Of a stretch of DNA of 64,000 bases, positions 1 to 15,400 are shown piece by piece. Source of the DNA: Clostridia bacterium (GTDB taxonomy: Bacteria; Bacillota; Clostridia; TANB77; CAG-508); assembly GCA_022790575.1 (NCBI GenBank), contig JAAVXM010000025.1, positions 410 through 64,409 of the forward strand. The letters are read 5' to 3'. Under the pieces are notes generated by a model, which worked only from the letters and a program-made list of their open reading frames with translations, was not told where the DNA came from and ran no database searches. The position numbers and the translations under genes were made by a program. Within the stretch, counting starts at the first letter, position 1; every line of letters begins with the position of its first letter.

Positions 1-501
1 ATTAAAATTTAGAAGAAAAAAGATACTAGATAATGCAGGTCTATCATTAAATCCTAGTTTAATTAGATTATTTGTGTCTTCTAAGGACTGACCATATGGA
101 TTACTATATGATTTGCAATATGATGGAACAGCAGCATCTAATAAACATAATTTTCTAACTCCATATCCTTGATACATTTTCATATATCTTGTAACAATTG
201 CGCCACCCATTGAAAATCCCAATAAATCAAAGTTCCATAAATTTAATGCATATATAACATAATATAAATCTGTTGCAAATTGATTATAATTGTATCCAGC
301 ACTTGTCACATCTGAGTTTCCAAACCCTCTTAAATCCATAGTAATAATTCTATAATTATTCTTTAATAGAACTGGAATCTGATACTCAAACATTTTGTGT
401 GATAAAGGCCAACCATGAACTAATACAATTGTTTTTTCTCCATTTGGATTTAATTCATATACTGCTATTTTTGCATTATCATTTGAATTTATAAAAAACA
501 T
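1..501 (-). CDS. alpha/beta-fold hydrolase (N-terminal 167 codons; ORF runs off the left window edge)
   Basis: My own reverse translation of 1-501 gives an open frame MFFINSNDNAKIAVYELNPNGEKTIVLVHGWPLSHKMF...LLGFSMGGAIVTRY. It has an HGWP motif and a GFSMGG (GxSxG) nucleophile elbow. GGAGG sits at 510-514 (minus) upstream of the ATG. It is absent from the ORF track because there is no stop in the window. Confidence 0.7.
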   Translation of the reverse strand, partial: MFFINSNDNAKIAVYELNPNGEKTIVLVHGWPLSHKMFEYQIPVLLKNNYRIITMDLRGFGNSDVTSAGYNYNQFATDLYYVIYALNLWNFDLLGFSMGGAIVTRYMKMYQGYGVRKLCLLDAAVPSYCKSYSNPYGQSLEDTNNLIKLGFNDRPALSSIFFLLNFN

Positions 502-607
502 GATATTTTCCTCCTATAATTTAATCTTATTATAGTGTATTCAAAATTGTTGTATTGGTTATTGAATAAAAATCTTTTTAAGACATAAAATAATTAAGGA
601 GGAAATT

Positions 608-1138
608 ATGGATAACACTATAATGAAATATCAAATAATCAGTACAATTTTTGTATTTATAGTAGGAACTCTATTACATTTTACATATGAATTGCTTGGC
701 GAAAGCCAATTTGTAGCATCATTTTCAGCAGTAAATGAAAGTGTATGGGAACACTTAAAACTATTATTTTTTCCAATGTTACTAACTACTATAATTGGAT
801 ATTTTTATATTGGAAAAAACATATCTAATTTTTTGTGCTCAAATACAATAGGGATACTTATATCTATAACATTCATAATTGTGTTTTTTTACACATATAC
901 AGGAATAATAGGGAAAAGTATAGTTTTTATTGATATAGCATCATTTTATGTAGCAGTAATGTTAGGAGAATATGTAACATACAGACTTTTAACAAGTAAT
1001 TTTAGTTGTAATAATACAATAGCAATAATAGTTTTATCAATAGTACTAATTAGTTTTATTGTATTTACTTACTTTACGCCTAGATTGGGCATTTTTAAAG
1101 ACCCAATATCAGGACAGTATGGAATTATAAAACATTAA
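608..1138 (+). CDS. multi-pass membrane protein of unknown function
   Basis: 176-aa ORF with about 5-6 hydrophobic segments. AAGGAGG precedes the ATG. No catalytic motif recognised. Confidence 0.6.
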   Translation: MDNTIMKYQIISTIFVFIVGTLLHFTYELLGESQFVASFSAVNESVWEHLKLLFFPMLLTTIIGYFYIGKNISNFLCSNTIGILISITFIIVFFYTYTGIIGKSIVFIDIASFYVAVMLGEYVTYRLLTSNFSCNNTIAIIVLSIVLISFIVFTYFTPRLGIFKDPISGQYGIIKH

Positions 1139-1195
1139 TTAAAATGTTATATTTATAATAATTTGGGCAAAATACTCTCAAGGAGAGTATTTTTT

Positions 1196-2194
1196 ATGTT
1201 TAAGCCAGAAACAATTTATTATGAAAAAGATATTATTAATTATCCATTAGGAAAAGAACTAATGACAAAATATGAAGAAATTCCAAAAATCGAAATAGAA
1301 AATCACAACAATATTGAAGAAATGAGAAAGAAGTCAAATAAAGATTTTCCATATATGAAAAGAAACTTAATTATTGGAACAAGAAAAACACATAAATTTG
1401 TTCCAAACCATAAAACATCTGATTTTCTAGTCCCATATACATCTTCAGGTTGCACAGCATCATGTATGTATTGCTATCTTGTATGTAATTATAATAAATG
1501 TGCTTATTTACGTTTATTTGTGAATAGGGAGGAGATGTTAGAAAAAATAATAAGAACAGCAAATAAATCAGACAAAAAACTAGTGTTTGAGATTGGAAGC
1601 AATAGTGATTTGATTTTAGAAAACTCAATTACAGGGAATTTGAAGTGGACTATTGAAAATTTTAAGAATGTAGATAATGGATATTTAACTTTGCCAACAA
1701 AATTTGATATGGTAGATGATATTTTACCATTAAATCATAATGGTAAAGTTACAATACGTATAAGTGTAAACCCAAGTGAAATCATTAATAAGGTTGAGTT
1801 TGGAACATCAAGCTTATCTAATAGAATTCAGGCGATAAACAAATTAAAAGAAGCTGGTTATAATGTAGGAATTCTAATAGCACCTGTAATATTTGTAGAT
1901 AACTGGAAAGAACTCTATTTAGAACTGATTAAAAAACTGGATTCAGAGTTATCTGAAAAGGTAAAAAAAGAAGTTTTTTTTGAAATAATATTTATGACAT
2001 ATAGTTATATTCATTCTAAAATAAACGAGGAAGCTTTTCCAAATGCTATAAATTTACTAGACAAAGACAAAATGACAGGGAGAGGTAGGGGGAAGTATTG
2101 GTATAAAAATGATGTTAGAGAAGAAGGAAGGAAATTCTTTATAGAAAATATGAATAAATTTTTTCCGCATAATACAATTGAATATATTGTTTAA
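1196..2194 (+). CDS. splB: spore photoproduct lyase (radical SAM)
   Basis: CTASCMYC = CxxxCxxC radical-SAM cluster motif. Length and overall pattern are typical of SplB. I prefer the ATG at 1196 (AGGAGAG RBS) over the TTG at 1163 in the ORF track. Confidence 0.8.
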   Translation: MFKPETIYYEKDIINYPLGKELMTKYEEIPKIEIENHNNIEEMRKKSNKDFPYMKRNLIIGTRKTHKFVPNHKTSDFLVPYTSSGCTASCMYCYLVCNYNKCAYLRLFVNREEMLEKIIRTANKSDKKLVFEIGSNSDLILENSITGNLKWTIENFKNVDNGYLTLPTKFDMVDDILPLNHNGKVTIRISVNPSEIINKVEFGTSSLSNRIQAINKLKEAGYNVGILIAPVIFVDNWKELYLELIKKLDSELSEKVKKEVFFEIIFMTYSYIHSKINEEAFPNAINLLDKDKMTGRGRGKYWYKNDVREEGRKFFIENMNKFFPHNTIEYIV

Positions 2195-2204
2195 TATAAT
2201 GGTA

Positions 2205-2249
2205 CCCACATACTGTAATAACTATCATTCAACAGTATGTGGGATTTTT
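2205..2249 (+). terminator. intrinsic terminator after splB (overlaps the 3' end of the convergent recombinase gene)
   Basis: Perfect 12-bp arms cccacatactgt (2205-2216) and acagtatgtggg (2232-2243), followed by a T-run at 2245-2249. Confidence 0.6.
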
Positions 2250-3790
2250 GGATATATATGTAATTCGAAAGTTGTTGGGTCTGAATCACTTTTTATAGCT
2301 TTTTCGTTTTTTAAATAAATAATCTTATAAAAAACACTTTTTAATAAAATATTTTTATCTCCAGCTGTATTTAATTCATTATATAAATCAACAATGCTTT
2401 CTAACTTGAGAACAAATGATTTTCTATTATTTTTGATTTCTAAATTCTTCTGCAAAAGTAATTTGTATTGTTCTAATTCAAATTCCAAATTTTGAATATT
2501 ATCTTTTATAACTTTAGAACGATTAATAAACTCATCTTTACTATAAATATCATTTTCTAAAAAACTATATATTTTAGTAAGTTTGCTGTTCTCTTTTTGT
2601 ATCTCTTTTGTAGTTGTTATAATTGATTCTTCAATCACTTTATTATTGTCATAATCTAAATTTTCTTTGAAATTATAGTCTATTTTATAATCCTCTAGCC
2701 ATATTTTTAAAGCATCAATTATTTTTTCTTCTACAATATAAAGCTTAGAACTTATATTATTACATTTTGGATTAGAACATATTAATGTCGAAAATTTAGA
2801 TTGTTTTGTATATGGTCTTCTTTGCATTGGTTTACCACATTTGCCACAAAAGACTAAGCCTGCTAATGGATTTTGAATTATGTTATTACATTTTACTTTT
2901 GGAGTATTTTGTTTTCTTTTTTCTTGGACTAAGTTCCAAGTTTTATCATCAATAATTGATTCATGCAATCCATTGTAAATCAAATAATTAGAGTTACGAG
3001 GTCTACTGATAACAACATGACCATTTTGTGTTTTCTTTTTTTGCTTTCTTCTATTCCAAACAATTTTTCCAATATAAGTAGGATTTGAAAGGATATCTTT
3101 AACTGTAGAAATTGTCCATTCTTTTGAAATTCTGGGCTTTAAATTCATTTTATTTAGTCTTCTAACAATTGAACCAATTGTAGTATTCTCAAAAGCATAT
3201 AATCTAAAAATTTCTTTAACAATAGAGGCTTCATTTTGATTTATTGACAATGTATAACCTTTTGAGTCTGTTAGTTTTATTCTATTATAACCAAAGGGGG
3301 CAATGCTTCCAATGAATTTACCTTCAGAAACAGAAATTTCACGCCCTCTTTGTAGACGTCTATTTATTGTCTTGTATTCTCTTCTTGACATAAATAAGCC
3401 AAATTCAAAATATTCTTCGTCAAACTCATTATCAGGGTCATATGTTTTAACTGGTGTAATAATTTTGGTATGAGAGTATTTAAATGCTTTAGATACTATA
3501 CCTTGGTCACTGGTATCACCACGTGCAAGTCTTTCTACCTCAACAACTAAAACACCAGTCCATTTTTCATTTTCAACATCTTTGAGAAGTTTTTGCATTT
3601 CCTTTCTTTCACTAATAGTCTCGCCACTCACAACTTCTCTATAGATTTTTCCAATAATTAAGTTTTTCTTTTCAGCTAGATTGGTTAAGATTTTTTCATG
3701 TCTTGCTAGGGTTTCATTTTCGCCATATTTTTCGGCTTCAATATCTTCTCGCGATTTTCTTAGATATATTGCATATAAATCACTTTTCAC
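2225..3790 (-). CDS. large serine recombinase (resolvase/invertase N-domain + recombinase + zinc-ribbon/coiled-coil C-terminal region)
   Basis: N-terminus AIYLRKSREDIE...LVVEVERLARGD carries the catalytic Ser context. Later CGKCGKPM...C..PKC Cys pairs and a long coiled-coil tail follow. GTG start with an AAAGGAGAAG RBS. Confidence 0.9.
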   Translation of the reverse strand: MKSDLYAIYLRKSREDIEAEKYGENETLARHEKILTNLAEKKNLIIGKIYREVVSGETISERKEMQKLLKDVENEKWTGVLVVEVERLARGDTSDQGIVSKAFKYSHTKIITPVKTYDPDNEFDEEYFEFGLFMSRREYKTINRRLQRGREISVSEGKFIGSIAPFGYNRIKLTDSKGYTLSINQNEASIVKEIFRLYAFENTTIGSIVRRLNKMNLKPRISKEWTISTVKDILSNPTYIGKIVWNRRKQKKKTQNGHVVISRPRNSNYLIYNGLHESIIDDKTWNLVQEKRKQNTPKVKCNNIIQNPLAGLVFCGKCGKPMQRRPYTKQSKFSTLICSNPKCNNISSKLYIVEEKIIDALKIWLEDYKIDYNFKENLDYDNNKVIEESIITTTKEIQKENSKLTKIYSFLENDIYSKDEFINRSKVIKDNIQNLEFELEQYKLLLQKNLEIKNNRKSFVLKLESIVDLYNELNTAGDKNILLKSVFYKIIYLKNEKAIKSDSDPTTFELHIYPKIPHTVE

Positions 3791-3821
3791 AACTTCTCCT
3801 TTCTTTTATTGATATTCAAGT

Positions 3822-3959
3822 TTACACCATTATGGAGTTGTTTATTAAATTAACAATAACAGTATTTATATATTCTTTTTGAGTAGTTATATCTTCTACT
3901 ATACAATCATCATAAAACTTTATTTTTGTGTTTTCTAGAGTATGTTCTTCTAATACCAT
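3822..3959 (-). CDS. 45-aa hypothetical protein immediately upstream of the recombinase gene (possible accessory/directionality factor, speculative)
   Basis: My own translation: MVLEEHTLENTKIKFYDDCIVEDITTQKEYINTVIVNLINNSIMV. AGAGGTG RBS lies 8 nt upstream of the ATG. The ORF ends 31 nt before the recombinase start. It is too short for the supplied track. Confidence 0.3.
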   Translation of the reverse strand: MVLEEHTLENTKIKFYDDCIVEDITTQKEYINTVIVNLINNSIMV

Positions 3960-4032
3960 ATATTTCACCTCTTTAAAATCTATGAAAAAAATACTTAATT
4001 TATACTGTGTTTTCTGTATATAATGGGGCTTG

Positions 4033-4061
4033 TTGAAAAATCAAGTAAAATGTTATATAAT
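4033..4061 (+). promoter_or_regulatory. sigma-A type promoter for the helicase-nuclease gene
   Basis: TTGAAA (4033-4038), 17 nt spacer, TATAAT (4056-4061). Confidence 0.45.
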
Positions 4062-4148
4062 AAGAAAATCAAAAAATATAGAAAATAAAGAATAGGTTGA
4101 TATTCATACAATAGTAATTAATAAAAAATGAAGATAGGGATGTAAAAA

Positions 4149-6944
4149 ATGAGCGAAGATTGTACACTAATAATTATAAAAGGAGAAAATAAAACAGAAG
4201 AAGTAAAACAAATAGAATGGGATGGAGAGGAAAAAAAATACAAAATCAAATACTTAAACAGCAACAAAGTATATAAATACAAATATGAAGATGTTGATAT
4301 TCAAAAATTTATAGAAAACATTAATATAGGAGACAACATTTTATGTTACAAAGATAAAATGATTGGAAATGTAAAAAAGGCAATCAGATATCAAGATTCT
4401 GTGAAAGTTATATATACAGATGGTAGTAATTCTATATTTTATAATGGGTATGAGATAACAGTAAAGAAAAGTTCAAGCAAAAAAGATATTATAGAAAAAG
4501 ATATAATTGGTTATTATAAAGAGATTGCTAAATATGCCAAGATAAAAGATGAAAATAAAGCAAATTACAACTCAAATCGTACTTTTTTAGAAGAAGAGTA
4601 TAGTAAATTAAACTATGTACCAGCTGATAGCGTGTTAGAGTGCTTTTTAAATAAGAAAAAGTTGTCAAAGCCAGAAATAGAAAAAGAAAAAATAATATAT
4701 CCTTTTAGATTTAACCTAAGCCAAAAGGAAGCAATTAATAATGCATATAAAAGTAATATATCTATTATAGAAGGACCACCAGGAACTGGAAAAACACAAA
4801 CCATTTTAAATATAATTGCAAATTTAGCTATAATGCAAAACAAGACTGTTGCAGTAGTGTCAAATAATAATGAAGCGGTAAAAAATGTAAAAGACAAATT
4901 AAAACAAGGTGGATATGAATTTATAATTGCAGATTTAGGGAATAAAGATAAAAGAAAGAAATTCTTTGAAGAACTCCCTCATCCCCAAATTGGAGGATTT
5001 AGTCTAGATATTAAAGAAAGAGATAAATTAGAAAAACAAATAGGAAGGTTAAATCGTATATTAGACAGCTTATTACAAAAAAAGAATAGACAAGCACAAT
5101 TGGAGAAAGAAATCTATGAATATAAGTTAGAACAAGACTATTTTAATAAATATTATGAAAAACAAAATATTGCTGAAATCAATAAATTAAGTTTTTACAA
5201 CAAAACAGATGATAGAATTATACAGTTTTTGTTAGATACTCAAATGTGGATTGATAATAAAGTTCAATTTGAATGGATGTATAAAATAAAGCTATTACTA
5301 AAATATGGAATTAAAGATTTAAAAGAACTAGACAAAAATATAATAGAAAATATTTTATTATTGCAAAAAGAATTTTATGAGATAAAGATACAAAATTTAG
5401 AGCAAGAACTTAAAGGAATAAACCATACATTAGATAAACATAAATTTGAAGAACTACAAGAAAAGCATCAAATAGCTTCTGAAAAGCTATTTAAGAATAA
5501 AATTCATGATAGATATATACACCTAAATAATGGAGAATTTACATATAAAAACTATCAATATAAAATAAAGAAATTCTTAAAATCATATCCTATAGTATTA
5601 AGTACAACATATTCACTAAGAAACAGTATTCCTCATGACTATATTTTTGACTATGTAATAATAGATGAGTCATCACAAGTAGACTTAACAACAGGGGTAC
5701 TAGCAATTTCTTGTGCTAAAAATGCAATAATAGTAGGAGACACAAAACAACTTCCACAAATAGTTGACATGAAAATCCAAGAAAAAATATCTAATAGTGA
5801 TATAGAACCATGTTATGACTATTTTCAAAATAACATATTATCATCTTTCCTAAAAATTTATGGTGACAAAATACCAAGAAAAGTGCTTAGAGAACATTAT
5901 AGATGTCATCCTAAAATTATTGAATTTTGCAATAAGAGATACTATAATGGAGAATTAATTGCATTTGCAAATGATGAACATAATAGTATAAAAAAACCAT
6001 TAGTTATATATTACACAGTAAAAGGAAATCATTTAAGAAAACTTACTGAAGGAGATATTAAAGGAACATATAATGCAAGAGAACTTGAAGTAATAAAAAA
6101 AGAAGTATTAGTTGATGAGAGAGTAAAAAACTTTAAGAATGAAGAGATAGGGATAACAACTCCATACAGGCTACAAGCAGATTTAATGCAAAATGTTGAT
6201 GAAAATATACAGAGTGATACAATACATAAATTTCAAGGAAGAGAGAAGAAGCTGATGATATTATCAACCGTATTAGATAATAGTAAAAATGGTAAACAAG
6301 GACTTGGTTTTGTAGATGATGCCTGTATGGTAAATGTAGCTGTTTCTAGAGCAATTGACCAATTTGTCGTAGTGACAGATAATAAGTTATTTAATGAGTA
6401 TGGAAAAGAAATAAAATCATTGCTAAAGTATATTAAATACAATGAAATGGATTCTGAAATTATTGAAAGCCAAATAGTTTCTGTATTTGATTTATTATAT
6501 AAAGAGTACTCAAAAAAGCTAAATGGTTTATCTAAAAATTTGTTGCATAGAAGAAAATATAAAAGTGAAGATATAATGGATACAATTTTATATAATGAAT
6601 TTTTAAAGGAGGATTATAGGGATTATAAATATACAGGCGAGTACTTATTGAGAGAGTTATTGAAAGATGTAGATAATTTAAATGACAATGAAAGACAATA
6701 TATAAACAATAGAGCAAGTGTTGATTTTGTAATATTTAACAAGATGGATAATAAACCAGTTTTACTCATTGAAGTGGATGGTTTCCAATTTCATGCAAAT
6801 AAACCAGAACAACTTGTAAAAGATGAAATGAAAAACAATATTGCAAGAAAAAATAATATTAAGCTTTTAAGGTTTGAAACTGGTGGAAAAGCTTATGACC
6901 AAAATTATATTATTAATGAGATTAGAAATGCATTGTTTTTGTAA
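4149..6944 (+). CDS. SF1 (Upf1/DNA2-like, AAA_11/AAA_12-type) helicase with unknown N-terminal domain and C-terminal Vsr/DUF559-type PD-(D/E)xK nuclease domain
   Basis: Walker A GPPGTGKTQ, Walker B DYVIIDESSQ. Further helicase motifs: VGDTKQLPQ, REHYRCHPKIIEF, TIHKFQGREK, VAVSRA. C-terminus VDFVIFN...LLIEVDGFQFH resembles the DUF559/Vsr endonuclease core. Confidence 0.85.
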   Translation: MSEDCTLIIIKGENKTEEVKQIEWDGEEKKYKIKYLNSNKVYKYKYEDVDIQKFIENINIGDNILCYKDKMIGNVKKAIRYQDSVKVIYTDGSNSIFYNGYEITVKKSSSKKDIIEKDIIGYYKEIAKYAKIKDENKANYNSNRTFLEEEYSKLNYVPADSVLECFLNKKKLSKPEIEKEKIIYPFRFNLSQKEAINNAYKSNISIIEGPPGTGKTQTILNIIANLAIMQNKTVAVVSNNNEAVKNVKDKLKQGGYEFIIADLGNKDKRKKFFEELPHPQIGGFSLDIKERDKLEKQIGRLNRILDSLLQKKNRQAQLEKEIYEYKLEQDYFNKYYEKQNIAEINKLSFYNKTDDRIIQFLLDTQMWIDNKVQFEWMYKIKLLLKYGIKDLKELDKNIIENILLLQKEFYEIKIQNLEQELKGINHTLDKHKFEELQEKHQIASEKLFKNKIHDRYIHLNNGEFTYKNYQYKIKKFLKSYPIVLSTTYSLRNSIPHDYIFDYVIIDESSQVDLTTGVLAISCAKNAIIVGDTKQLPQIVDMKIQEKISNSDIEPCYDYFQNNILSSFLKIYGDKIPRKVLREHYRCHPKIIEFCNKRYYNGELIAFANDEHNSIKKPLVIYYTVKGNHLRKLTEGDIKGTYNARELEVIKKEVLVDERVKNFKNEEIGITTPYRLQADLMQNVDENIQSDTIHKFQGREKKLMILSTVLDNSKNGKQGLGFVDDACMVNVAVSRAIDQFVVVTDNKLFNEYGKEIKSLLKYIKYNEMDSEIIESQIVSVFDLLYKEYSKKLNGLSKNLLHRRKYKSEDIMDTILYNEFLKEDYRDYKYTGEYLLRELLKDVDNLNDNERQYINNRASVDFVIFNKMDNKPVLLIEVDGFQFHANKPEQLVKDEMKNNIARKNNIKLLRFETGGKAYDQNYIINEIRNALFL

Positions 6945-7007
6945 TTAACAAAATTTTAGAATGAAAAAATAATAAATGAGTTATTTGCAATAAAATAGCA
7001 CAATTAA

Positions 7008-7036
7008 TTGACTAACCTATATAATAATAGTATAAT
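7008..7036 (+). promoter_or_regulatory. sigma-A type promoter for the ATPase/RloB pair
   Basis: TTGACT (7008-7013), 17 nt spacer, TATAAT (7031-7036). Confidence 0.45.
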
Positions 7037-7082
7037 ATAAAGGAAAGTTGCAGATAATATGCAAGTAATAAGGAGGAATAAT

Positions 7083-8390
7083 ATGCTATTAGAATTTAAA
7101 ATGAAAAATTTTAAATCTTTTAAAGAAGAAATGGAATTTAAAATGATACCAACTACAATAAAAGATTTAGAATACAGCATAATAACAAGAAAGATTAAGG
7201 GGAAAGAAATAAAAGCATTATCTTCTGCAGTAATATATGGACCGAACTCATCTGGAAAGACCAATATAATTGGTGGAATGGCGGTTTTACGTTCTATAGT
7301 CTTAAATGGAAATATAAAAAATAAAGAAGACTCTAGTGAAACAAACATAGAATTAGATAAATTAGAATTAATACCAAATACTAAAAATAATGATAAAGAA
7401 CCAGTACTATTTGAAATTAAATTCATAACACAAGGAATATTAGTACGATTTAAACTATTAGTAGAATTAGGGAACTTTTTAGATGAAGATTATGACAGAA
7501 AAATAATAAATGAAGAATTATATATAGATAATGATATGGTTTATATAAGAAATGACAAATTAAAAATTGGAAAAATAGACAAGATTGAAAAATATATGAT
7601 TGAAAATTTTTCAGAAGAAGTTGCAGAAAAAATTGCAAATTCAAACCTAGACAAAAGTGAATTATTTCTTAATGGTATATTTAAAACTTTATATAGTAAA
7701 AAAATAGTTGATATCATTAATGAATGGTTTAAAAGCAAATTTAAAATCATCTATCATGCAAACCGATTAAATTATTATCCAATTATAAACACACAAAATA
7801 AAGCTAAAAAATATGCTGTAAATGAAAAACTGAATAAAGCATTAAATTGCTTAGGGTTAGAATCAGAAGAAATCGTTTATCCAATGAATACAGACAAAAA
7901 ACCAATACCTTTATCAGTAATTGATATAAGTAAAGAAAATAAAAAAGCTATAGTACCAGCAGAAGTATTTGAATCTTTTGGAACAATAAGATTTATAAAT
8001 ATGTTTCCAATCATATCAAGTGCAATTAACACTGGAGCAACTTTAGTTATTGATGAATTAGATGCCTCAATGCATCCTATGGTAATAATGAACATTATTA
8101 ATATTTTTCATAATGATGAAATTAATACAAAGGGTGCGCAATTGATTTTTAATACACACAATCCAATATTTCTAAATAATGCCTTATTTAGAAGAGATGA
8201 AATAAAGTTTGTTGACAAAGAAGAAAATAGTAGTATTCATTACTCATTATCAGATTTTGGAACAAATGGGTTAAATGGAGTTAGAAATACAGAAGACTAT
8301 ATGAAAAATTATTTTATTAATAAATATGGAGCAATTAGAAACATTGATTTTACTAATATCTTTATAAATGATAAGGAGAAGAATAAATGA
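7083..8390 (+). CDS. AAA_15/AAA_21-type ABC-like ATPase (AbiLi-like)
   Basis: N-terminus LLEFKMKNFKSFKEE, Walker A GPNSSGKTN, Walker B LVIDELDASMHP, then QLIFNTHNP. I prefer the ATG at 7083 (AGGAGG RBS) over 7059. The stop overlaps the next start (ATGA, 8387-8390). Confidence 0.8.
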   Translation: MLLEFKMKNFKSFKEEMEFKMIPTTIKDLEYSIITRKIKGKEIKALSSAVIYGPNSSGKTNIIGGMAVLRSIVLNGNIKNKEDSSETNIELDKLELIPNTKNNDKEPVLFEIKFITQGILVRFKLLVELGNFLDEDYDRKIINEELYIDNDMVYIRNDKLKIGKIDKIEKYMIENFSEEVAEKIANSNLDKSELFLNGIFKTLYSKKIVDIINEWFKSKFKIIYHANRLNYYPIINTQNKAKKYAVNEKLNKALNCLGLESEEIVYPMNTDKKPIPLSVIDISKENKKAIVPAEVFESFGTIRFINMFPIISSAINTGATLVIDELDASMHPMVIMNIINIFHNDEINTKGAQLIFNTHNPIFLNNALFRRDEIKFVDKEENSSIHYSLSDFGTNGLNGVRNTEDYMKNYFINKYGAIRNIDFTNIFINDKEKNK

Positions 8391-9055
8391 TAAAGAAAAT
8401 ATGCCAACAGTATTATTTTTCATTAGAGGGGGAAACTGAAAAGTGGTATTTTGAACACTTACAAAGATTAATAAATAACACAGATGAAATATCATTTAAA
8501 GTTAGTTTTGTTACACAGATAAATAAATCTATAATTAGCAGAGCAAAGTCAATACCTGCTATATATAAAAAAACAAAGGCATTTCATATATGTGATTATG
8601 AAAGTAACGAAGAAATTCATGTAAAACAGTTTAATAAAGTATTAGAAGAATTAAAAAATGTAAAAAAGATAAATAAAAATATTGAATATGAATTAGGATA
8701 TAGTAATTTTTCATTTGATTTATGGATTATCTTGCATAAAATTCAATATAATGGCTTCATAACTAATAGAAATCAATATATACATGGAATTAATAAAGCA
8801 TATAATGAAAAATTTGCATCTTTAGCAGAATATAAAGAGAAAGATAATTTCAAAAGGATACTATCAAAAATTAGTTTAGATGATGTAATTAGAGCAGTAA
8901 ATAATGGAAATAGAATTAGAAAAATGAACGAACAAAATTCAAAGGATAATTATAGAAAATATGGACAATTTGAATATTACATAGAAAATCCTGATTTAAC
9001 CATAAACAAATGTGTAGAGAAGATACTAAAAGAGTGTGGTGTAATAGTAAATTAA
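8387..9055 (+). CDS. RloB-like (Toprim-related) protein, AbiLii-like partner of the ATPase
   Basis: N-terminal FSLEGETEKWYF matches the RloB CEGxxTExxYF-type motif. It is translationally coupled to the ATPase by a 4-nt overlap. Confidence 0.7.
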   Translation: MIKKICQQYYFSLEGETEKWYFEHLQRLINNTDEISFKVSFVTQINKSIISRAKSIPAIYKKTKAFHICDYESNEEIHVKQFNKVLEELKNVKKINKNIEYELGYSNFSFDLWIILHKIQYNGFITNRNQYIHGINKAYNEKFASLAEYKEKDNFKRILSKISLDDVIRAVNNGNRIRKMNEQNSKDNYRKYGQFEYYIENPDLTINKCVEKILKECGVIVN

Positions 9056-9511
9056 CAACATCAAGGAACTAAAGAATTAGCACACTTAGAAATGGTAGGA
9101 GCGATAGTTCATCAGTTAACAAAAAATGCATCAATAGAAGAGATAGAAGCAGCAGGGTTATCACCATATTATACAGACCATGGTGTTGATGTATACCCAT
9201 CATCAGCAGCAGGAGTGCCATTTACAGCATCATATATAGCATGTAAAGGAGATGCAATTGCAAACTTGCAAGAAGACCTAGCAGCAGAGCAAAAAGCAAG
9301 AGCGACATATGAAAAGCTAATAAACTTATGTAGAGACAATCCAGATGTAGTAGACCCACTTCGTTTCTTAAGAGAAAGAGAAGTAGTACACTTCCAAAGA
9401 TTTGGAGAAGCATTAAGAGGAGTACAAGACAAGTTAGCAGAAAAGAAATTTTACATGAATGATGGTAACTGTATAAAAATGAACCAAAACGACTGTGAAT
9501 GTGGAAGATAG
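9056..9511 (+). pseudogene. cotJC: 3' two-thirds of a Mn-catalase family / CotJC-like gene (5' part missing)
   Basis: The frame opens right after the RloB stop and reads QHQGTKELAHLEMVGAIVHQL...AAGVPFTASYI..KGD...EDLAAEQKARATYE...LRFLREREVVHFQRF. This matches the region of B. subtilis CotJC from GTEEFAHLEM onward. About 70 N-terminal residues, the RBS and the promoter are absent. Confidence 0.75.
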
Positions 9512-9654
9512 AAAAACAATATAAAATATAAAAAGAAGTCAAAAATTGGATAATAATGAATTATCTGATTTTTGATTTCATTTTATTTTTAATAAAATTT
9601 TCACATAAAATTCACAAACATGTAATAAAATACAACAAATAAAAGGAGGAAGAT

Positions 9655-12261
9655 ATGTTACAATTAAAAAACATAACAAAAAACTATCTATCAGGAGCTA
9701 ATGAGGTAAAAGCATTAAAAGGGATAGATGTTGAATTTAGAGAAAATGAATTTGTCTCAATATTAGGGCAAAGTGGATGTGGAAAAACAACACTATTAAA
9801 TATAATAGGAGGATTAGACAAATATACAACAGGAGACTTAATTATAAATGGAAAATCAACAAAAGAGTTCAAGAGTAAAGACTGGGATACATATAGAAAT
9901 CACTCTGTAGGGTTTGTATTTCAGAGTTATAATCTAATACCACATCAAACAGTACTATCAAATGTAGAATTAGCATTAACAATATCAGGAGTAAATAAGG
10001 AAGAGAGAAAAAGGAGAGCAAAAGAAGCATTAGAACAAGTAGGGTTGGGAGACCAATTAAATAAAAAGCCAAATCAGATGTCTGGAGGTCAAATGCAAAG
10101 AGTTGCGATAGCAAGAGCATTAGTAAATGACCCAGACATATTACTTGCAGATGAACCAACAGGAGCACTAGACTCAGCAACAAGTGTACAAGTCATGGAA
10201 ATATTAAAAGAAATATCAAAAGACAGATTAATAATAATGGTAACACACAATCCAGAACTTGCAGAAAAATACTCAACAAGAGTAATAAGATTATTAGATG
10301 GAAAAATTACAGATGATTCAAATCCATATAAAGCAAGTAAAGATGAATTAGAAAAGTCAAAATCGAAAAAAGACAAATCAGGAAAGGCATCTATGAAATT
10401 TTCAACAGCTGTTAGACTAAGTTTAAACAACTTGATGACTAAAAAAGGTAGGACATTACTAACATCATTTGCAGGAAGTATAGGAATAATAGGAATTGCA
10501 CTAATATTATCATTATCACATGGAATGCAAACATATATAAACAAAGTAGAAGAAGACACATTATCATCATATCCAATAACAATACAAGAATCAACAATGG
10601 ATATATCAAGTATGATGGAAGCAATGATGGGAGACGCAGAGGAAATAGAACATGAAGAAGGAAAAATTTATTCAAGAGCGATAGTCAATAATATGTTAGA
10701 GACCATATCAACAAAAATAAAAACAAACAATTTAGAAGAATTTAAAAAATTCATAGAAGGAAATGAAACAGACATAAAAGATTATATAAATGCAGTTCAA
10801 TATGGATATAACATGGACTTAAACATATATGCACAAAACAAACAAGGAGAAACTGTACAAGTAAACCCAAGTCTTGTATTTGATAAATTAGGATTTGGAG
10901 ATATGATGGAAGCACATCAAGAATCAAATGAAATGTTTTCTGGCGGAATGATGATGTCAGAAACAGATGTATGGATGGAAATGCTTAATAATCAAGAATT
11001 ATTAAATTCACAATATGAAGTATTAGCTGGAAAATGGCCTAGCAAATATAATGAAGTAGTACTTATGGTTGATAAAAATAATGAAATAAGTGATTACACC
11101 TTATATTCATTAGGAATAAAAGACATAAATGAATTGAGTGAAGCAATGGATAAAATAATGAAAGGTGAAGAGGTAAAAGCTCCTGAAGAAGTAGAAAGTT
11201 ATACATATCAAGACATATTAGATTATAAATTCAAAGTAGTACTAAATACAGATTATTATAAAAAAGATGGAAACACATGGAAAGATATGTCAGATAATAG
11301 TGAATATATGAAAAGGCTTGTTGAAGATGCAGAAGAAATTAAAATAGTAGGAGTTGTAAAACCAAATGAAGAAACAATAGCTTCTTCACAAGCAGGTGTA
11401 ATAGGATATAATAGTGAACTCAAAGAATATGTAATTAACAAAATAAATGAAGCAGAAATAGTTAAAGAGCAAAAAGCGAATCAGGATACAAATGTATTTA
11501 CTGGTTTAAAATTCTCAGAAAATGAAAATACTTCATTTGATTATACAACATTGTCAGAAGAACAAAGAGCATATATGGCAACACTTTCAGAACAAGAACT
11601 TGCAGAAATTATGAAAACATATTCTACAAATGCAGATGCTACATATGAGAACAATCTAGAGAGATTAGGTGTAGTCGATTTAGAAAAACCAAGTTCAATA
11701 AATATATATCCAAAAGGCTTTGAAGCAAAAGACATGATTTCAAATATTATAACAGATTACAATAATAAGCAAACAGACAATGGAAAAGAGGAAAATGTAA
11801 TAAACTATACAGATATAGTTGGAATTATGATGAAGTCAGTCTCAACAATAATTGATGTAATTAGTTATGTTTTAATAGCATTTGTAGGAATATCATTAGT
11901 AGTTTCATCAATAATGATAGGAATTATCACATATATATCTGTTCTTGAAAGAACAAAGGAAATTGGAATATTGCGTAGTATAGGTGCATCTAAAAAAGAT
12001 GTTTCAAGAGTATTTAATGCGGAAACACTATTAGTTGGGTTAGTTGCAGGATTAATAGGAATAGGAGTAACACTATTATTAAACATACCAATTAATATGC
12101 TTATAAAAGCAATTGTTGGAATTTCAGGAATCGCGAAATTACCATTTGCAGGTGGGGCAATTCTAGTTGCAATAAGTGTTGGCTTAACTATGATTGCGGG
12201 TCTAATACCAGCAAAATTTGCTTCTAAACGTGACCCAGTAGAAGCTCTAAGAAGTGAATAA
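9655..12261 (+). CDS. fused ABC transporter ATP-binding protein/permease (MacB/FtsX-type)
   Basis: Walker A GQSGCGKTT, signature SGGQMQR, Walker B LLADEPTGALD. A large extracytoplasmic region follows, then an FtsX-like C-terminal membrane domain. Confidence 0.85.
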   Translation: MLQLKNITKNYLSGANEVKALKGIDVEFRENEFVSILGQSGCGKTTLLNIIGGLDKYTTGDLIINGKSTKEFKSKDWDTYRNHSVGFVFQSYNLIPHQTVLSNVELALTISGVNKEERKRRAKEALEQVGLGDQLNKKPNQMSGGQMQRVAIARALVNDPDILLADEPTGALDSATSVQVMEILKEISKDRLIIMVTHNPELAEKYSTRVIRLLDGKITDDSNPYKASKDELEKSKSKKDKSGKASMKFSTAVRLSLNNLMTKKGRTLLTSFAGSIGIIGIALILSLSHGMQTYINKVEEDTLSSYPITIQESTMDISSMMEAMMGDAEEIEHEEGKIYSRAIVNNMLETISTKIKTNNLEEFKKFIEGNETDIKDYINAVQYGYNMDLNIYAQNKQGETVQVNPSLVFDKLGFGDMMEAHQESNEMFSGGMMMSETDVWMEMLNNQELLNSQYEVLAGKWPSKYNEVVLMVDKNNEISDYTLYSLGIKDINELSEAMDKIMKGEEVKAPEEVESYTYQDILDYKFKVVLNTDYYKKDGNTWKDMSDNSEYMKRLVEDAEEIKIVGVVKPNEETIASSQAGVIGYNSELKEYVINKINEAEIVKEQKANQDTNVFTGLKFSENENTSFDYTTLSEEQRAYMATLSEQELAEIMKTYSTNADATYENNLERLGVVDLEKPSSINIYPKGFEAKDMISNIITDYNNKQTDNGKEENVINYTDIVGIMMKSVSTIIDVISYVLIAFVGISLVVSSIMIGIITYISVLERTKEIGILRSIGASKKDVSRVFNAETLLVGLVAGLIGIGVTLLLNIPINMLIKAIVGISGIAKLPFAGGAILVAISVGLTMIAGLIPAKFASKRDPVEALRSE

Positions 12262-12322
12262 TAAATTCATAATAAGTTAACAAAATTATATTATAATATA
12301 TGTGTAATATAAAAAGACAAAC

Positions 12323-12351
12323 TTGAAAAAAATATGGAAATATGTTATATT
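12323..12351 (+). promoter_or_regulatory. sigma-A type promoter
   Basis: TTGAAA (12323-12328), 17 nt spacer, TATATT (12346-12351), upstream of the activase-type gene. Confidence 0.35.
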
Positions 12352-12457
12352 TATTCCGATGAATTGAATTATATTTAAGGGGAAATTGAAAAATAATTGC
12401 CAAAGAACAATATCTTTCCAATTTAGTATACACCCTAAATAAGGAATGAGGTTAATT

Positions 12458-15400
12458 ATGAAAAAAACAATACATATAGGTATGGATGTAGGGTCAACAA
12501 CTGTAAAAATTGTAGTAATGGATGAAAAGCTAGAAATTATACATACATCATATGAAAGACACTTTTCAGATACTAAAAACACAGTGTGCAAAGTATTAGA
12601 AGAACTAGTAGAAAAATATAAAGAAAACGAATTTACGATTGCATTAACAGGCTCAGGAGCAATGAGTACATCTCAATTTTTAGATGTACCATTTATACAA
12701 GAAGTTGTATCTTGTAAGAGGGCAGTAGAAAAGTACATACCAGAAACAAATGTTGTAATAGAATTAGGTGGAGAAGACGCAAAAATAATATATTTTGGAA
12801 AGTCAATAGAACAAAGAATGAATGGAACATGTGCAGGTGGAACAGGAGCATTTTTAGACCAAATGGCATCATTATTAAATACAGACACAGCGGGATTAAA
12901 TGAATTAGCAAAAGGATATAAAACAATATATCCAATAGCTTCACGCTGTGGAGTATTTGCAAAAACAGATGTGCAACCATTATTAAATGAGGGAGCTGCA
13001 AAAGAAGATATAGCTGTATCCATTTTTCAAGCAGTGGTAAATCAAACAATAAGTGGTTTAGCATGTGGAAGACCAATTCGTGGGAATATAGCGTTTTTAG
13101 GAGGACCATTAAATTACTTGCCAGAACTAAGAAAAAGATTTATAGAAACATTAAATCTGAGTAAAGAACAAACAATAATACCAGAAGAGGCACATTTATT
13201 TGTTGCAAAAGGAGCATGTTTAGATGCAAAAGATATGACGCCAATAACTGTAGAAAAATTAAAAAGTAAAATACAAGTATTAAAATCATCACGAGACACA
13301 ACAACACAGCCATTACAGCCACTATTTAAAACAGACATTGAATATAAAGAATTTGAAGAAAGACATGCAAAAGATAAAGTAGAGAAAAAAACATTATCAG
13401 AGCATAAAGGAGATTGCTTTATAGGAATAGATGCAGGGTCAACAACATCAAAATTAGTAGTAACAGATAGGGAAGGAACATTGCTTTACTCATCATATAA
13501 AAGTAATGAAGGAAAACCATTACAAAGTATAATAGAGATGTTAAAAGAATTATATTCACTAATGCCAAAAGAAGCAATAATCAGATATAGTGGTGTAACA
13601 GGATATGGAGAAAAATTAATACAAACAGCGTTAAATGTTGACTTAAATGAAATAGAAACAATAGCTCATTATACAGCAGCCAAGAAATTTGAACCCAAAG
13701 TAACAAGTATAGTAGACATTGGTGGTCAAGACATGAAATATATCAAGTTAAAAAATAACACTATAGATAACATAATGTTAAATGAAGCATGTTCATCAGG
13801 ATGTGGTTCATTTATAGAAACATTTGCAAAAAGTTTAAATATTGAGATATCAGAATTTGTAAATGCAGCATTAGAGGCACAAAATCCAGTTGACTTGGGG
13901 TCAAGATGTACAGTATTTATGAACTCAAAAATAAAGCAAGCACAAAAAGAAGGATATTCAGTAGGAGACATATCAGCAGGTTTATCATACTCAGTAATAA
14001 AAAATGCGATACAAAAAGTAATGAAAATAAGAGATGTAAAAAAACTTGGAAGTCATATAGTAGTACAAGGTGGAACATTTTATAATGAAGCTGTATTAAG
14101 AGCATTTGAGTTAATAGTAGGAAGAAATGTAATAAGACCAGATATAGCAGGATTAATGGGAGCATATGGAATGGCATTACTTTCATGTGAACAATATGAA
14201 GCTAATATGGATATGGAATACAAATCAACAATATCAAATATAGAGCAAATAGACAAATTAGATATACAAGTATCACATACAAGATGTAATGGATGTGAAA
14301 ATCATTGTCAATTAACAATAAATAGATTTAGTAATGGAAAAAGGCATGTATCAGGGAATAGATGTGAAAAAGGAGAAGGGATAGTAAATAAAAATACAGA
14401 ATTACCAAACCTAGTCAAATATAAAAATGAGAGAATATTTGGATATACACCATTAGAAGAAAGTGAGGCGCCAAGAGGAACAATAGGGATACCAAGAGTA
14501 TTGAATATGTATGAAGACTTTCCATTTTGGTTTACATTATTTACAAATTTAGGATTTAGAGTAATAATCTCAGAAAAAAGTACAAGAAAGATATATGAAA
14601 AAGGAATGGAATCAATGCCATCAGAATCTGTATGCTATCCAGCCAAAATATCACATGGACATATTATAAGTCTAATTCAAAAAGGAATAAAAACAATATT
14701 TTATCCATGTATGCCATATTCAAGAAAAGAATTTTCAGATGCAAACAATAGATATAATTGTCCGATAGTAATATCTTATGCTGAGGTTATAAAAAATAAT
14801 GTTGAAGAATTAAAAACAAAAAATATAAAATTCATGAATCCATTTTTACCATTTGAGCCTAAGCAATTAATGGAAAGAATGATGGAGTTAGAAGAATTTA
14901 AAGAATATAACTTTACAAAAAAAGAATTAAAAGTGGCGATAGCAGAAGCAGAAGCAGAATATAAAAAAACTAAGGAAGACATACATAATAAAGGTAAAGA
15001 AACCCTTGAATATATAGAAAATAACAAATTAAAAGGTATAGTTTTAGCGGGAAGACCATATCATGTTGACCCAGAAATAAATCATGGAATAGATACACTT
15101 ATTACAAGTCTTGGAATGTGTGTATTAACAGAAGACAGTATTTCTGATAAAACTTTACCACAAAGACCATTACGTGTGGTTGACCAATGGATGTTCCATT
15201 CAAGACTATATGCAGCAGCGGACTTTGTAGGGAAACATGATAATTTAGAACTAGTACAAATAAATTCATTTGGTTGTGGGGTTGATGCAGTTACAACAGA
15301 CCAAGTTGAAGAAATACTAACAAGTTTTGATAAAATGTATACATTAATAAAAATAGATGAAGTAAATAACCTTGGAGCTGTGAGAATACGTTTGCGTTCA

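Follow-up and report, generated by a model that had tools for sequence, protein, structure and literature searches.

Why does a gene for a spore coat protein begin in its middle, directly behind the last gene of an island with a serine recombinase? This question is raised by a 64,000-nt stretch of DNA from a Clostridia bacterium (assembly GCA_022790575.1, contig JAAVXM010000025.1, positions 410 to 64,409), here called the window, in which the 3' portion of cotJC follows a recombinase gene and three further genes. We consider it probable that window positions 1 to 9075 belong to a compact, non-phage element that splits cotJC and form its right-hand part. An earlier note on this DNA had described a recombinase, a 45-aa open reading frame (ORF), a superfamily 1 (SF1) helicase-nuclease gene and an ATPase/RloB pair, followed by a part of cotJC, and the ORF listing and family scans confirmed this layout. 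The features on which the question turns are the following.

2225..3790, minus strand: large serine recombinase, 521 aa (Pfam Resolvase, Recombinase and Zn_ribbon_recom)
3822..3959, minus strand: 45-aa acidic ORF, 5' of the recombinase gene with a gap of 31 bp
9052..9095, plus strand: right attachment site (attR), with the element arm TTAACAACATCAAGGAACTAAA at 9052-9073 and the cotJC arm ATTAGCACACTTAGAAATGG at 9076-9095
9072-9077: shared core AAGAAT of attR, with the inferred crossover dinucleotide GA at 9074-9075 (from the alignment of the attR and attL sites of relatives)
9074..9511, plus strand: 3' portion of cotJC, approximately residues 62-208 of intact CotJC, with the ORF intact to its natural stop

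The cotJC fragment corresponds to a Mn-catalase/CotJC protein without its first ~61 residues (Pfam E value 9e-30, profile positions 63-197; tblastn E value 7e-41), and it was free of stop codons and frameshifts. It was 90 to 92% identical to the intact CotJC of relatives, whose full-length homologues have 207 to 212 aa. When an intact CotJC from the same species was sought among the best matches and the cluster members, none above 92% identity was found. The gene is interrupted between the codons for GTEE and LAHLEM, and the same codon position is split in relatives. The fragment had been said to lie in another frame than the last cargo gene; this is wrong, since positions 8387 and 9092 are both in frame 2. 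The stop codon of that cargo gene (TAA, 9053-9055) sits inside the conserved element arm of the att site. Comparison of the fragment with 16 split alleles gave a median ratio of nonsynonymous to synonymous substitution (dN/dS) of 0.13, with synonymous change near saturation. The split cotJC is thus under purifying selection.

Using the window recombinase as the query, we searched one genome per species and obtained 198 relatives, 80 of which (72 to 80% identical to the window recombinase) were kept as loci for comparison. Their hosts are uncultured gut Clostridia from humans, mice, rabbits, and chickens. With the recombinase set on the plus strand, the family layout reads cotJC 3' part (minus), variable cargo, small ORF (plus), recombinase (plus) and, after 70 to 1700 bp, cotJC 5' part (minus). 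The 5' part was found beyond the recombinase in 68 of the 80 loci and the 3' part before it in 52; both were present in 43, and such bounded elements span 3.1 to 11.1 kb. The core of the family is an operon of the ~45-aa ORF and the recombinase, two att arms, and variable cargo slots on both sides of the recombinase.

The junctions of the relatives were conserved to the base. Left junctions (attL, 68 relatives) read ...AATGATATTGGTACAGAAGAA / TGAGTACCATGATGTTGTCAATAGC..., and right junctions (attR, 50 relatives) read ...TTGACAACATCATGGAACAGAAGAA / TTAGCACACTTAGAAATGG..., the slash marking the border. The right junction of the window, TTAACAACATCAAGGAACTAAAGAA / TTAGCACACTTAGAAATGG, is within the family variation. 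When the two element arms were joined, the reconstructed attP was a 40-bp imperfect palindrome, ACAACATCAAGGAACTAAA-GA-ATGAGTACCATGATGTTGT, whose arms pair at 15 of 20 positions around the central GA. Judged by its sequence, this site has the form expected of a serine-integrase attP, and its symmetry alone points to GA as the probable crossover. Furthermore, joining of the cotJC halves in silico at the shared core gave an uninterrupted ORF of 196 to 234 aa in 29 of 30 loci, and the junction peptide of the rejoined CotJC of relatives (...ILNDIGTEELAHLEM...) was identical to that of intact CotJC. The attR arm and the frame of the window fit this pattern of a restored ORF, the left half of the gene being out of view. 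Thus, the earlier proposal of a skin-type serine-recombinase element inside cotJC was supported by related loci with the recombinase between the two cotJC halves, by the conserved att sites, and by a gene that can be rejoined.

By the terms of the same note, a truncated fragment shared by relatives without the recombinase would speak against its proposal. We looked at such relatives and found intact cotJC instead. The nearest relatives by their flanks (ABC and BcrAD genes, 80 to 85% identical DNA) have an intact cotJA-cotJB-cotJC and no recombinase, and no hydrolase, DUF6512, or SPL gene is located near their cotJC.

The recombinase of the window is encoded by a full-length ORF with all its domains (PF00239, PF07508 and PF13408), each above the Pfam cutoff. 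The catalytic motif AIYLRKS is present in it and in the translations of two relatives, and from the position of this motif Ser13 is the predicted nucleophile. The protein matches a PHROG integrase (E value 2e-93), and its nearest solved structure is SprA/YokA of SPbeta (E value 2.7e-40). The small ORF comprises 45 aa if it starts at ATG 3959, or 48 aa if it starts at GTG 3968. It adjoins the recombinase in 71 of the 80 related loci (54 to 87% identity) and, because it lies on the same strand with a gap of 31 bp, it is probably cotranscribed with the recombinase gene. No family match was found for it in Pfam, NCBIfam, PHROGs, PADLOC, or PDB, and the PDB search revealed no similarity to known recombination directionality factors (RDFs), including SprB. 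Since it is conserved beside the recombinase, and since GirX provides the precedent of a 42-aa RDF, we regard the 45-aa ORF as a candidate RDF. If this candidate and the recombinase are made together, excision would be favored over integration, which would suit a developmental switch.

The region upstream of the small ORF contains two overlapping, divergent promoter-like sites:

4017..4044, minus strand: promoter-like TTGATT-16-TATATA, for the operon of the small ORF and the recombinase (read from the sequence)
4033..4061, plus strand: promoter-like TTGAAA-17-TATAAT, for the helicase gene, with 11 of 12 matches; divergent from the site at 4017..4044 and overlapping it

In the leader and promoter comparison, which covered 69 related loci, the small-ORF promoter was found as TTGATT-17-(CA)TATAAT in 50 loci, ~90 nt upstream of the start codon, and a leader hairpin (10 bp, CTCAAGACAAG..TTGTCTTGGG) followed by a U7 tract was found in 47. 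In relatives (e.g., L012:9600-9781) the conserved upstream block was seen to consist of AAGGGAAATAAAAGGGAA, TTGATT-17-CATATAAT, and the leader hairpin. The hairpin of the relatives did not show covariation, as its sequence hardly varies. By its sequence it looks like a terminator or attenuator, or like a palindromic site for a protein; GACAAG within it resembles a SpoIIID box, which we mention as a lead only. When the window region and the sequences of three relatives were compared with Rfam, no credible match to a known leader RNA was obtained.

These comparisons bear on an alternative in which the locus is an ordinary integrative island. In that case, cotJC would be no more than a conserved landing site, the island would be excised sporadically for transfer or loss, uncoupled from sporulation, and the loss of CotJC would be tolerated, perhaps by means of paralogues. 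The presence or absence of the element indeed varies among close relatives, the cargo is highly variable (77 clusters for 131 ORFs), the promoter of the small ORF (TTGATT-17-TATAAT) is near the sigma-A consensus, and C. difficile has redundant CotJC-like proteins (PMC11222575). However, strong purifying selection is seen in the split alleles of lineages between which synonymous change is saturated, and most of the scanned cargo has no recognizable transfer or replication functions, Mob- and Rep-type genes being present only in apparent nested or adjacent elements. The -10 box of the relatives reads CATATAAT/CATACAAT and fits not only the sigma-A type but also the sigma-E type, the latter being a lead only. 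Moreover, the target is inside the coding sequence of a mother-cell coat gene, and to our knowledge every characterized sporulation intervening element lies in the coding sequence of a mother-cell gene. Altogether, we regard an island uncoupled from sporulation as improbable.

In Bacillus subtilis, cotJ is expressed in the mother cell under the control of sigma-E. For the element that we favor, cotJC would stay split in vegetative cells and in the forespore, and the cargo would protect the cell from phage. In the sporulating mother cell, the recombinase, with the small-ORF product as RDF, would recombine attL with attR. A circle would be released and cotJC would become intact, with an attB in which the cotJC 5' part is joined to TTAGCACACTTAGAAATGG; the attP of the excised circle would join ...CATCAAGGAACTAAAGAA to the second element arm, P'. 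Excision would be confined to the terminal mother cell, and the spore would keep the element.

Does the copy in the window still have the left end that such excision would need? Left of the recombinase, the window contains the following features.

1..501, minus strand: N-terminal 167 codons of an alpha/beta-hydrolase gene, cut at the window edge; recurrent family cargo, with promoter-region homology to ~582
608..1138, plus strand: DUF6512 membrane protein gene, a cargo cassette (Pfam DUF6512, E value 1.5e-34)
1163..2194, plus strand: SPL-family radical-SAM gene (splB-like), likely start ATG 1196 (Pfam SPL, E value 1.5e-69)
2205..2244: hairpin with 12-bp arms and a T run, a probable terminator of the SPL gene (from reading of the sequence)

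The earlier note had taken splB for the left host flank and position 2205 for the start of the element. This view had to be given up, since the SPL gene, the DUF6512 gene and the hydrolase gene at the edge are family cargo in other genomes. Hydrolase homologues with 73 to 91% identity are located directly 3' of the recombinase in L019, L036, L054, and L077, on its other side in L065 and L074, and also inside elements in L094 and L096-L099. DUF6512 homologues are in the element in L020, L036, L062, L094, and L096, beside the recombinase module in L077 (where the module is located outside cotJC), and outside the element, downstream of cotJC, in L055 and L058. The interval from the small ORF to attR contains, in L096-L099, the DUF6512 gene, the hydrolase gene and an SPL gene with 85% identity, and in L096-L098 the stop codon of the SPL gene is 17 bp from the element arm (P) of attR. 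In the bounded 8-kb element of L094, the hydrolase gene is located 2.1 kb short of attL, and on that side the cargo has a length of 5.3 kb up to attL. Altogether, attL is 60 to 2100 bp beyond the hydrolase gene in the relatives that bear it.

Because the hydrolase, DUF6512, and SPL genes are cargo in bounded elements elsewhere, we read window positions 1-2243 as element interior. It is likely that attL and the cotJC 5' part are to the left of position 1, and that this copy still has both ends. Of the two alternatives previously given for the left end, the cargo evidence thus favors extension past the left window edge, and insertion accompanied by a deletion is less favored. We would expect attL and cotJA-cotJB-cotJC 5' a few hundred to a few thousand bases left of position 1. 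There, the left junction would read ...AATGATATTGGTACNGAAGAA / TNNGTNCCNTNATGNTGTCAATAG..., after cotJA, cotJB, and ~61 cotJC codons on the plus strand.

Several observations weigh against an intact element of this kind. In the 64-kb window, tblastn detected no cotJC 5' half and a pattern search detected no P' arm or second att core, attR being the sole match to the att core. The DNA left of the window was not recovered: when the recombinase, the DUF6512 protein, the SPL protein, and the cotJC fragment were looked up as exact proteins, all contigs obtained were short and stopped within the hydrolase gene. Among homologues of the hydrolase N terminus, cluster members included, there was no exact match, and an exact 34-mer scan of metagenome contigs was empty. 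A search of metagenome and viral contigs for the attP junction of the circle gave 0 matches, an outcome that is uninformative. Near window position 30, 12 nt are deleted in frame from the hydrolase gene (NEYFG region) relative to its homologues. Three relatives, L038 and L084 among them, are without attL within 6 to 10 kb. In addition, the conserved promoter looks, from its sequence, like a housekeeping sigma-A type. Finally, four observations, on the recombinase 3' end, the leader, the gene order at the right flank, and the locus L077, are described below together with an alternative that they would suit.

According to this alternative, the window copy is an immobilized remnant. It was inserted in cotJC, and attL and the cotJC 5' part were afterwards lost or moved elsewhere by a rearrangement (deletion, inversion, or shuffling of cassettes), so that one att site is left, the cargo is fixed, and cotJC is permanently broken. 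No attL-type arm was found within 2.2 kb of the window recombinase, compared to 70 to 1700 bp in most relatives. The C terminus of the recombinase is altered: homology to the relatives ends at ~2240-2243, within the last five codons and exactly at the 12-bp hairpin of the SPL terminator, and the tail PHTVE* differs from those of all relatives (PKI* or PKT*). The conserved sequence that normally adjoins the recombinase 3' end is absent. Furthermore, window positions 3960-4044 keep the promoter and have lost the upstream block; the leader hairpin, present in 47 of 69 relatives, is deleted. That a copy of the module can exist without cotJC is shown by L077, from the same metagenome-assembled genome (MAG) as L037, in which the recombinase module is located by a comM-like gene with no cotJC in reach. 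On the other side, all window genes left of the recombinase are typical element cargo, and the 5.3 kb of cargo before attL in L094 is a precedent for such a distance. The cotJC fragment and attR are without decay, and the recombinase ORF is full length with all domains. We therefore consider an immobilized remnant rather unlikely, though it is the main alternative to an intact element.

The remnant would also be in line with the gene order at the right flank. The nearest relatives have the order BcrAD (minus), ABC (minus), g129 (minus), cotJA (plus), cotJB (plus), cotJC (plus), and in the window the cotJC 3' part (plus) leads straight into an ABC-FtsX transporter gene (plus). The cotJ operon is thus inverted with respect to the ABC gene relative to the nearest relatives, meaning that the locus was rearranged at least once. 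The flank downstream of cotJC begins with the following feature.

9535..9579, plus strand: terminator-like hairpin 3' of cotJC, followed by the promoter region of the ABC transporter gene at ~9580-9654

Homology to the sequence upstream of the ABC gene in L090 and L091 starts at ~9597. In a comparison of window positions 9512-16786 with L090-L093, cotJ was inverted relative to both the ABC-FtsX and the BcrAD/DUF2229 genes, and the window junction lacked the 129-aa gene by which ABC and cotJA are separated in L090-L093. A single inversion with its breakpoint at the att site was rejected as the cause of the ABC adjacency, as the layout can be explained only if the cotJ operon was inverted as a whole, for which a single event is enough.

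Could the two borders simply be an artefact, a chimeric contig in which unrelated pieces were joined at 2200 and 9055? The source is apparently rare, being seen in short metagenome contigs only; it is present in samples SRR29855650-56, SRR29855682, SRR36199850, and JGI 3300051405. However, both junctions are covered at 100% identity by independent assemblies from other samples (L088, window positions 1068-2782; L089, 8764-9969), and the right junction matches the family attR exactly. An assembly artefact is therefore extremely improbable.

The hydrolase, DUF6512, and SPL cassettes occur in differing orders among the genomes (e.g., L094 and L096), and those of the window are joined at short microhomologies. 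The cargo was therefore evidently shuffled. Insertion of the DUF6512 and SPL genes as one event between the recombinase and the hydrolase gene was considered and then softened to the statement that the boundary at ~582 is a cassette edge with microhomology (TTATTGAAT). GGTACC near 2203 as a remnant of the P' arm, or the SPL/recombinase junction as a secondary att site, was rejected, as the homology ends at the hairpin and the likeness amounts to five bases. The window SPL gene encodes a member of the SPL family by its sequence, and may be a paralogue; it exceeded the Pfam SPL cutoff by a wide margin and scored 243.6 bits against NCBIfam TIGR04070 (cutoff, 400), and SplB orthology is unproven. 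The SPL-family gene changes its context: it is in the element in the window and in L096-L098 (L096:6562-7560), and in L062 (2353-3351) it belongs to the host, at 1.6 kb downstream of cotJC. Within window positions 1-45, a further ~10-nt deletion and a frameshift are suggested in the hydrolase gene, which may be a pseudogene or may reflect a breakpoint at the window edge. In L077 (2993-6478), the copy consists of DUF6512, small ORF, recombinase, and hydrolase without a recognizable att arm, and the L037 copy of the same MAG is a normal cotJC element.

The cargo between the recombinase operon and attR comprises the following features, in addition to the helicase promoter-like site at 4033..4061.

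4149..6944, plus strand: SF1 (Upf1/IGHMBP2-like) helicase fused to a DUF2726 nuclease-like domain (Pfam AAA_11, AAA_12 and DUF2726)
7008..7036, plus strand: promoter-like TTGACT-17-TATAAT, for the AbiL pair
7059..8390, plus strand: AbiLi-type AAA_21 ATPase (PADLOC AbiLi, E value 3.1e-71; Pfam AAA_21, E value 1.3e-27)
8387..9055, plus strand: AbiLii/RloB protein, with its stop codon within the P arm of attR (PADLOC AbiLii, E value 1.6e-10; Pfam RloB, E value 7.7e-13)

The promoter-like sites that the earlier note had listed at 4033 and 7008 are both present, and they tie with one minus-strand site (4540) for the top regional score. Such sites are common in this region (95 found versus 76 expected), the AT-rich background being high. 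The two genes at 7059-9055 match the AbiLi and AbiLii models and overlap by 4 bp, as in an operon; by gene content, the pair is assigned to the AbiL type. No exact counterpart of the AbiLi protein was on record, possibly because the gene was called from another start. The helicase-DUF2726 protein gave partial PADLOC matches to the helicase regions of MkoA, MkoC, and Hhe and partial NCBIfam matches to ProA and Hhe below the cutoff. The MkoC match was limited to the helicase stretch 434-975 of 1136, and the C-terminal part is DUF2726 in place of the PLD nuclease of MkoC, with no PLD match; it is thus not of Mokosh type II. Judging from its domains, we regard it as a candidate single-gene defense protein rather than as a member of Mokosh, Hhe, or ProA. 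A PHROGs scan found no phage structural, packaging, or lysis genes, the only matches being to integrase, unknown-function, and esterase entries.

In the cargo survey of the relatives, 131 ORFs from the 43 bounded elements fell into 77 clusters, none of them common to the window. The commonest cargo was RhuM/PDC-S05 (14 loci), followed by ToxN/AbiQ (5), PBECR nuclease (5), viperin-like radical-SAM (3), and Fic/SoFic (1); transporters, a surface protein, and metabolic enzymes were also present. Among the cassettes of the family that can be recognized, anti-phage or toxin genes (RhuM/PDC-S05, AbiQ/ToxN, AbiL, viperin-like, Fic) are thus the most frequent. The designation "defense island" in the earlier note is therefore fair for the window cargo, and for the family, accessory cassette with many defense and toxin genes is more accurate.

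How does the cotJC family relate to known systems? Known sporulation intervening elements include skin, SPbeta, vfbin, vrin, gin, and yin. GirC of gin needs the 42-aa, motif-less GirX for excision, and GirX also blocks integration (PMC5595907). Like gin, which is located in gerE of Bacillus cereus ATCC 10987 (PMC5595907), the element described here is a non-phage element in a small mother-cell sporulation gene. Both combine a large serine recombinase with a tiny motif-less ORF (GirX with 42 aa; 45 aa here), carry defense-type cargo (restriction-modification in gin; AbiL and helicase-nuclease here), and have att sites whose short core is flanked by an imperfect inverted repeat. In contrast to gin, the target is cotJC and not gerE, the hosts are gut Clostridia, and the size is 3 to 11 kb compared to the 31 genes of gin. 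Furthermore, the small ORF is directly upstream of the recombinase gene on the same strand, probably in one operon, and the cotJC family is known from sequence alone.

SprA, assisted by the small factor SprB, restores spsM in the mother cell (PMC4191935, PMC5499854). As for SPbeta in spsM of B. subtilis, recombination of attL with attR is proposed here to rejoin a sporulation gene in the mother cell. In contrast to the cotJC element, SPbeta is an active phage of 134 kb whose RDF gene lies apart from that of the recombinase; the small ORF of the window is without similarity to SprB. The skin elements in sigK (SpoIVCA/Skr in B. subtilis; CD1231/CD1234 in C. difficile; PMC5025042) likewise have a serine recombinase at the element end and split a mother-cell gene. 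In skin, a small RDF controls the cell-type specificity (PMC5025042), and the candidate counterpart here is the 45-aa ORF. Unlike the cotJC element, skin is a decayed prophage in a regulatory gene and gates the sporulation program. Here a structural protein of the coat is the target, and a checkpoint role of excision in development is therefore unlikely. XisF (fdxN element of Anabaena) and CcrB (SCCmec), large serine recombinases for the excision of elements that bear cargo or are removed in development, gave weak NCBIfam matches (E values 1e-27 to 1e-28), with scores far below the family cutoffs (96 versus 375 bits and 97 versus 900 bits), which indicates a likeness at the superfamily level only.

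The class is thus known, and cotJC was named as an integration target in the 2013 in silico survey of Abe et al., as cited in bioRxiv 10.1101/2021.11.22.469490. In the literature searched, in which that survey was represented by this citation and not by its own text, we did not find a description of the att sites of the family, its two-gene module, its spread in gut Clostridia, its defense cargo, or the stacking described below. The gene-splitting sporulation elements known so far come from a small number of cultured Bacillus and Clostridium strains, and the locus points to a large, uncharacterized family in uncultured gut Clostridia. The window alone, as one incomplete example, is of modest value. 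The family as a whole provides a system for asking why mobile elements settle in mother-cell genes, whether such a site favors defense cargo, and how excision is timed. It also offers an att site of ~40 bp and a compact two-gene module, and may yield a new recombinase, an att site, and an RDF candidate for genome engineering.

Several relatives have more than one interruption in cotJC, and the other serine recombinases nearby are only ~25% identical to that of the window. A second site at residue ~100-102 was seen in L062, L014, L021, L035, L051, and L096, a further one at residue ~135 in L049, and in L017 and L042 a junction is located 14 nt upstream of the main site. The locus L062 contains three cotJC pieces (residues 1-67, 62-102, and 97-208), and L017 and L042 appear to hold three elements and hence four pieces. 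From these multiply interrupted loci, the number of distinct insertion sites in cotJC is therefore at least three or four, all within ~230 bp.

A broader and more tentative idea, which we hold possible rather than probable, is that cotJC serves as a multisite landing pad for small serine-recombinase cassettes. These would be "developmentally disposable" accessory or defense islands that ride in the spore germline within a gene for which only the terminal mother cell has a need, are excised there by a recombinase/RDF operon behind a conserved leader terminator, and can be stacked so that the gene is in three to four pieces. The window copy would be one of them, with an acquired SPL-family DNA-repair gene.

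Extra nested or adjacent elements with RepL, Mob_Pre, Fic, RadC-like, small-resolvase, and XRE genes were detected in L096:434-6368 and L036:7800-15400. From their gene content they look mobilizable, unlike the minimal cotJC cassette. The motif ATTTTACAG(C/T)CAATAGC was present in inverted orientation near both element ends of relatives, ~30 to 45 bp inside the att arms, and could be a putative accessory binding site; the attR side of the window bears only a weak version of it (GTGTAATAGTAAAT). In L034 (~12020) and L036 (~7090), the P' arm is joined to ...CCTTATGGGTTTCACGAA and not to cotJC. This sequence resembles the P arm of a paralogous element, whose recombinase, 51 to 57% identical, is encoded ~9 kb further on. 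The two junctions suggest tandem arrays that may have arisen by insertion at the att site of a resident element.

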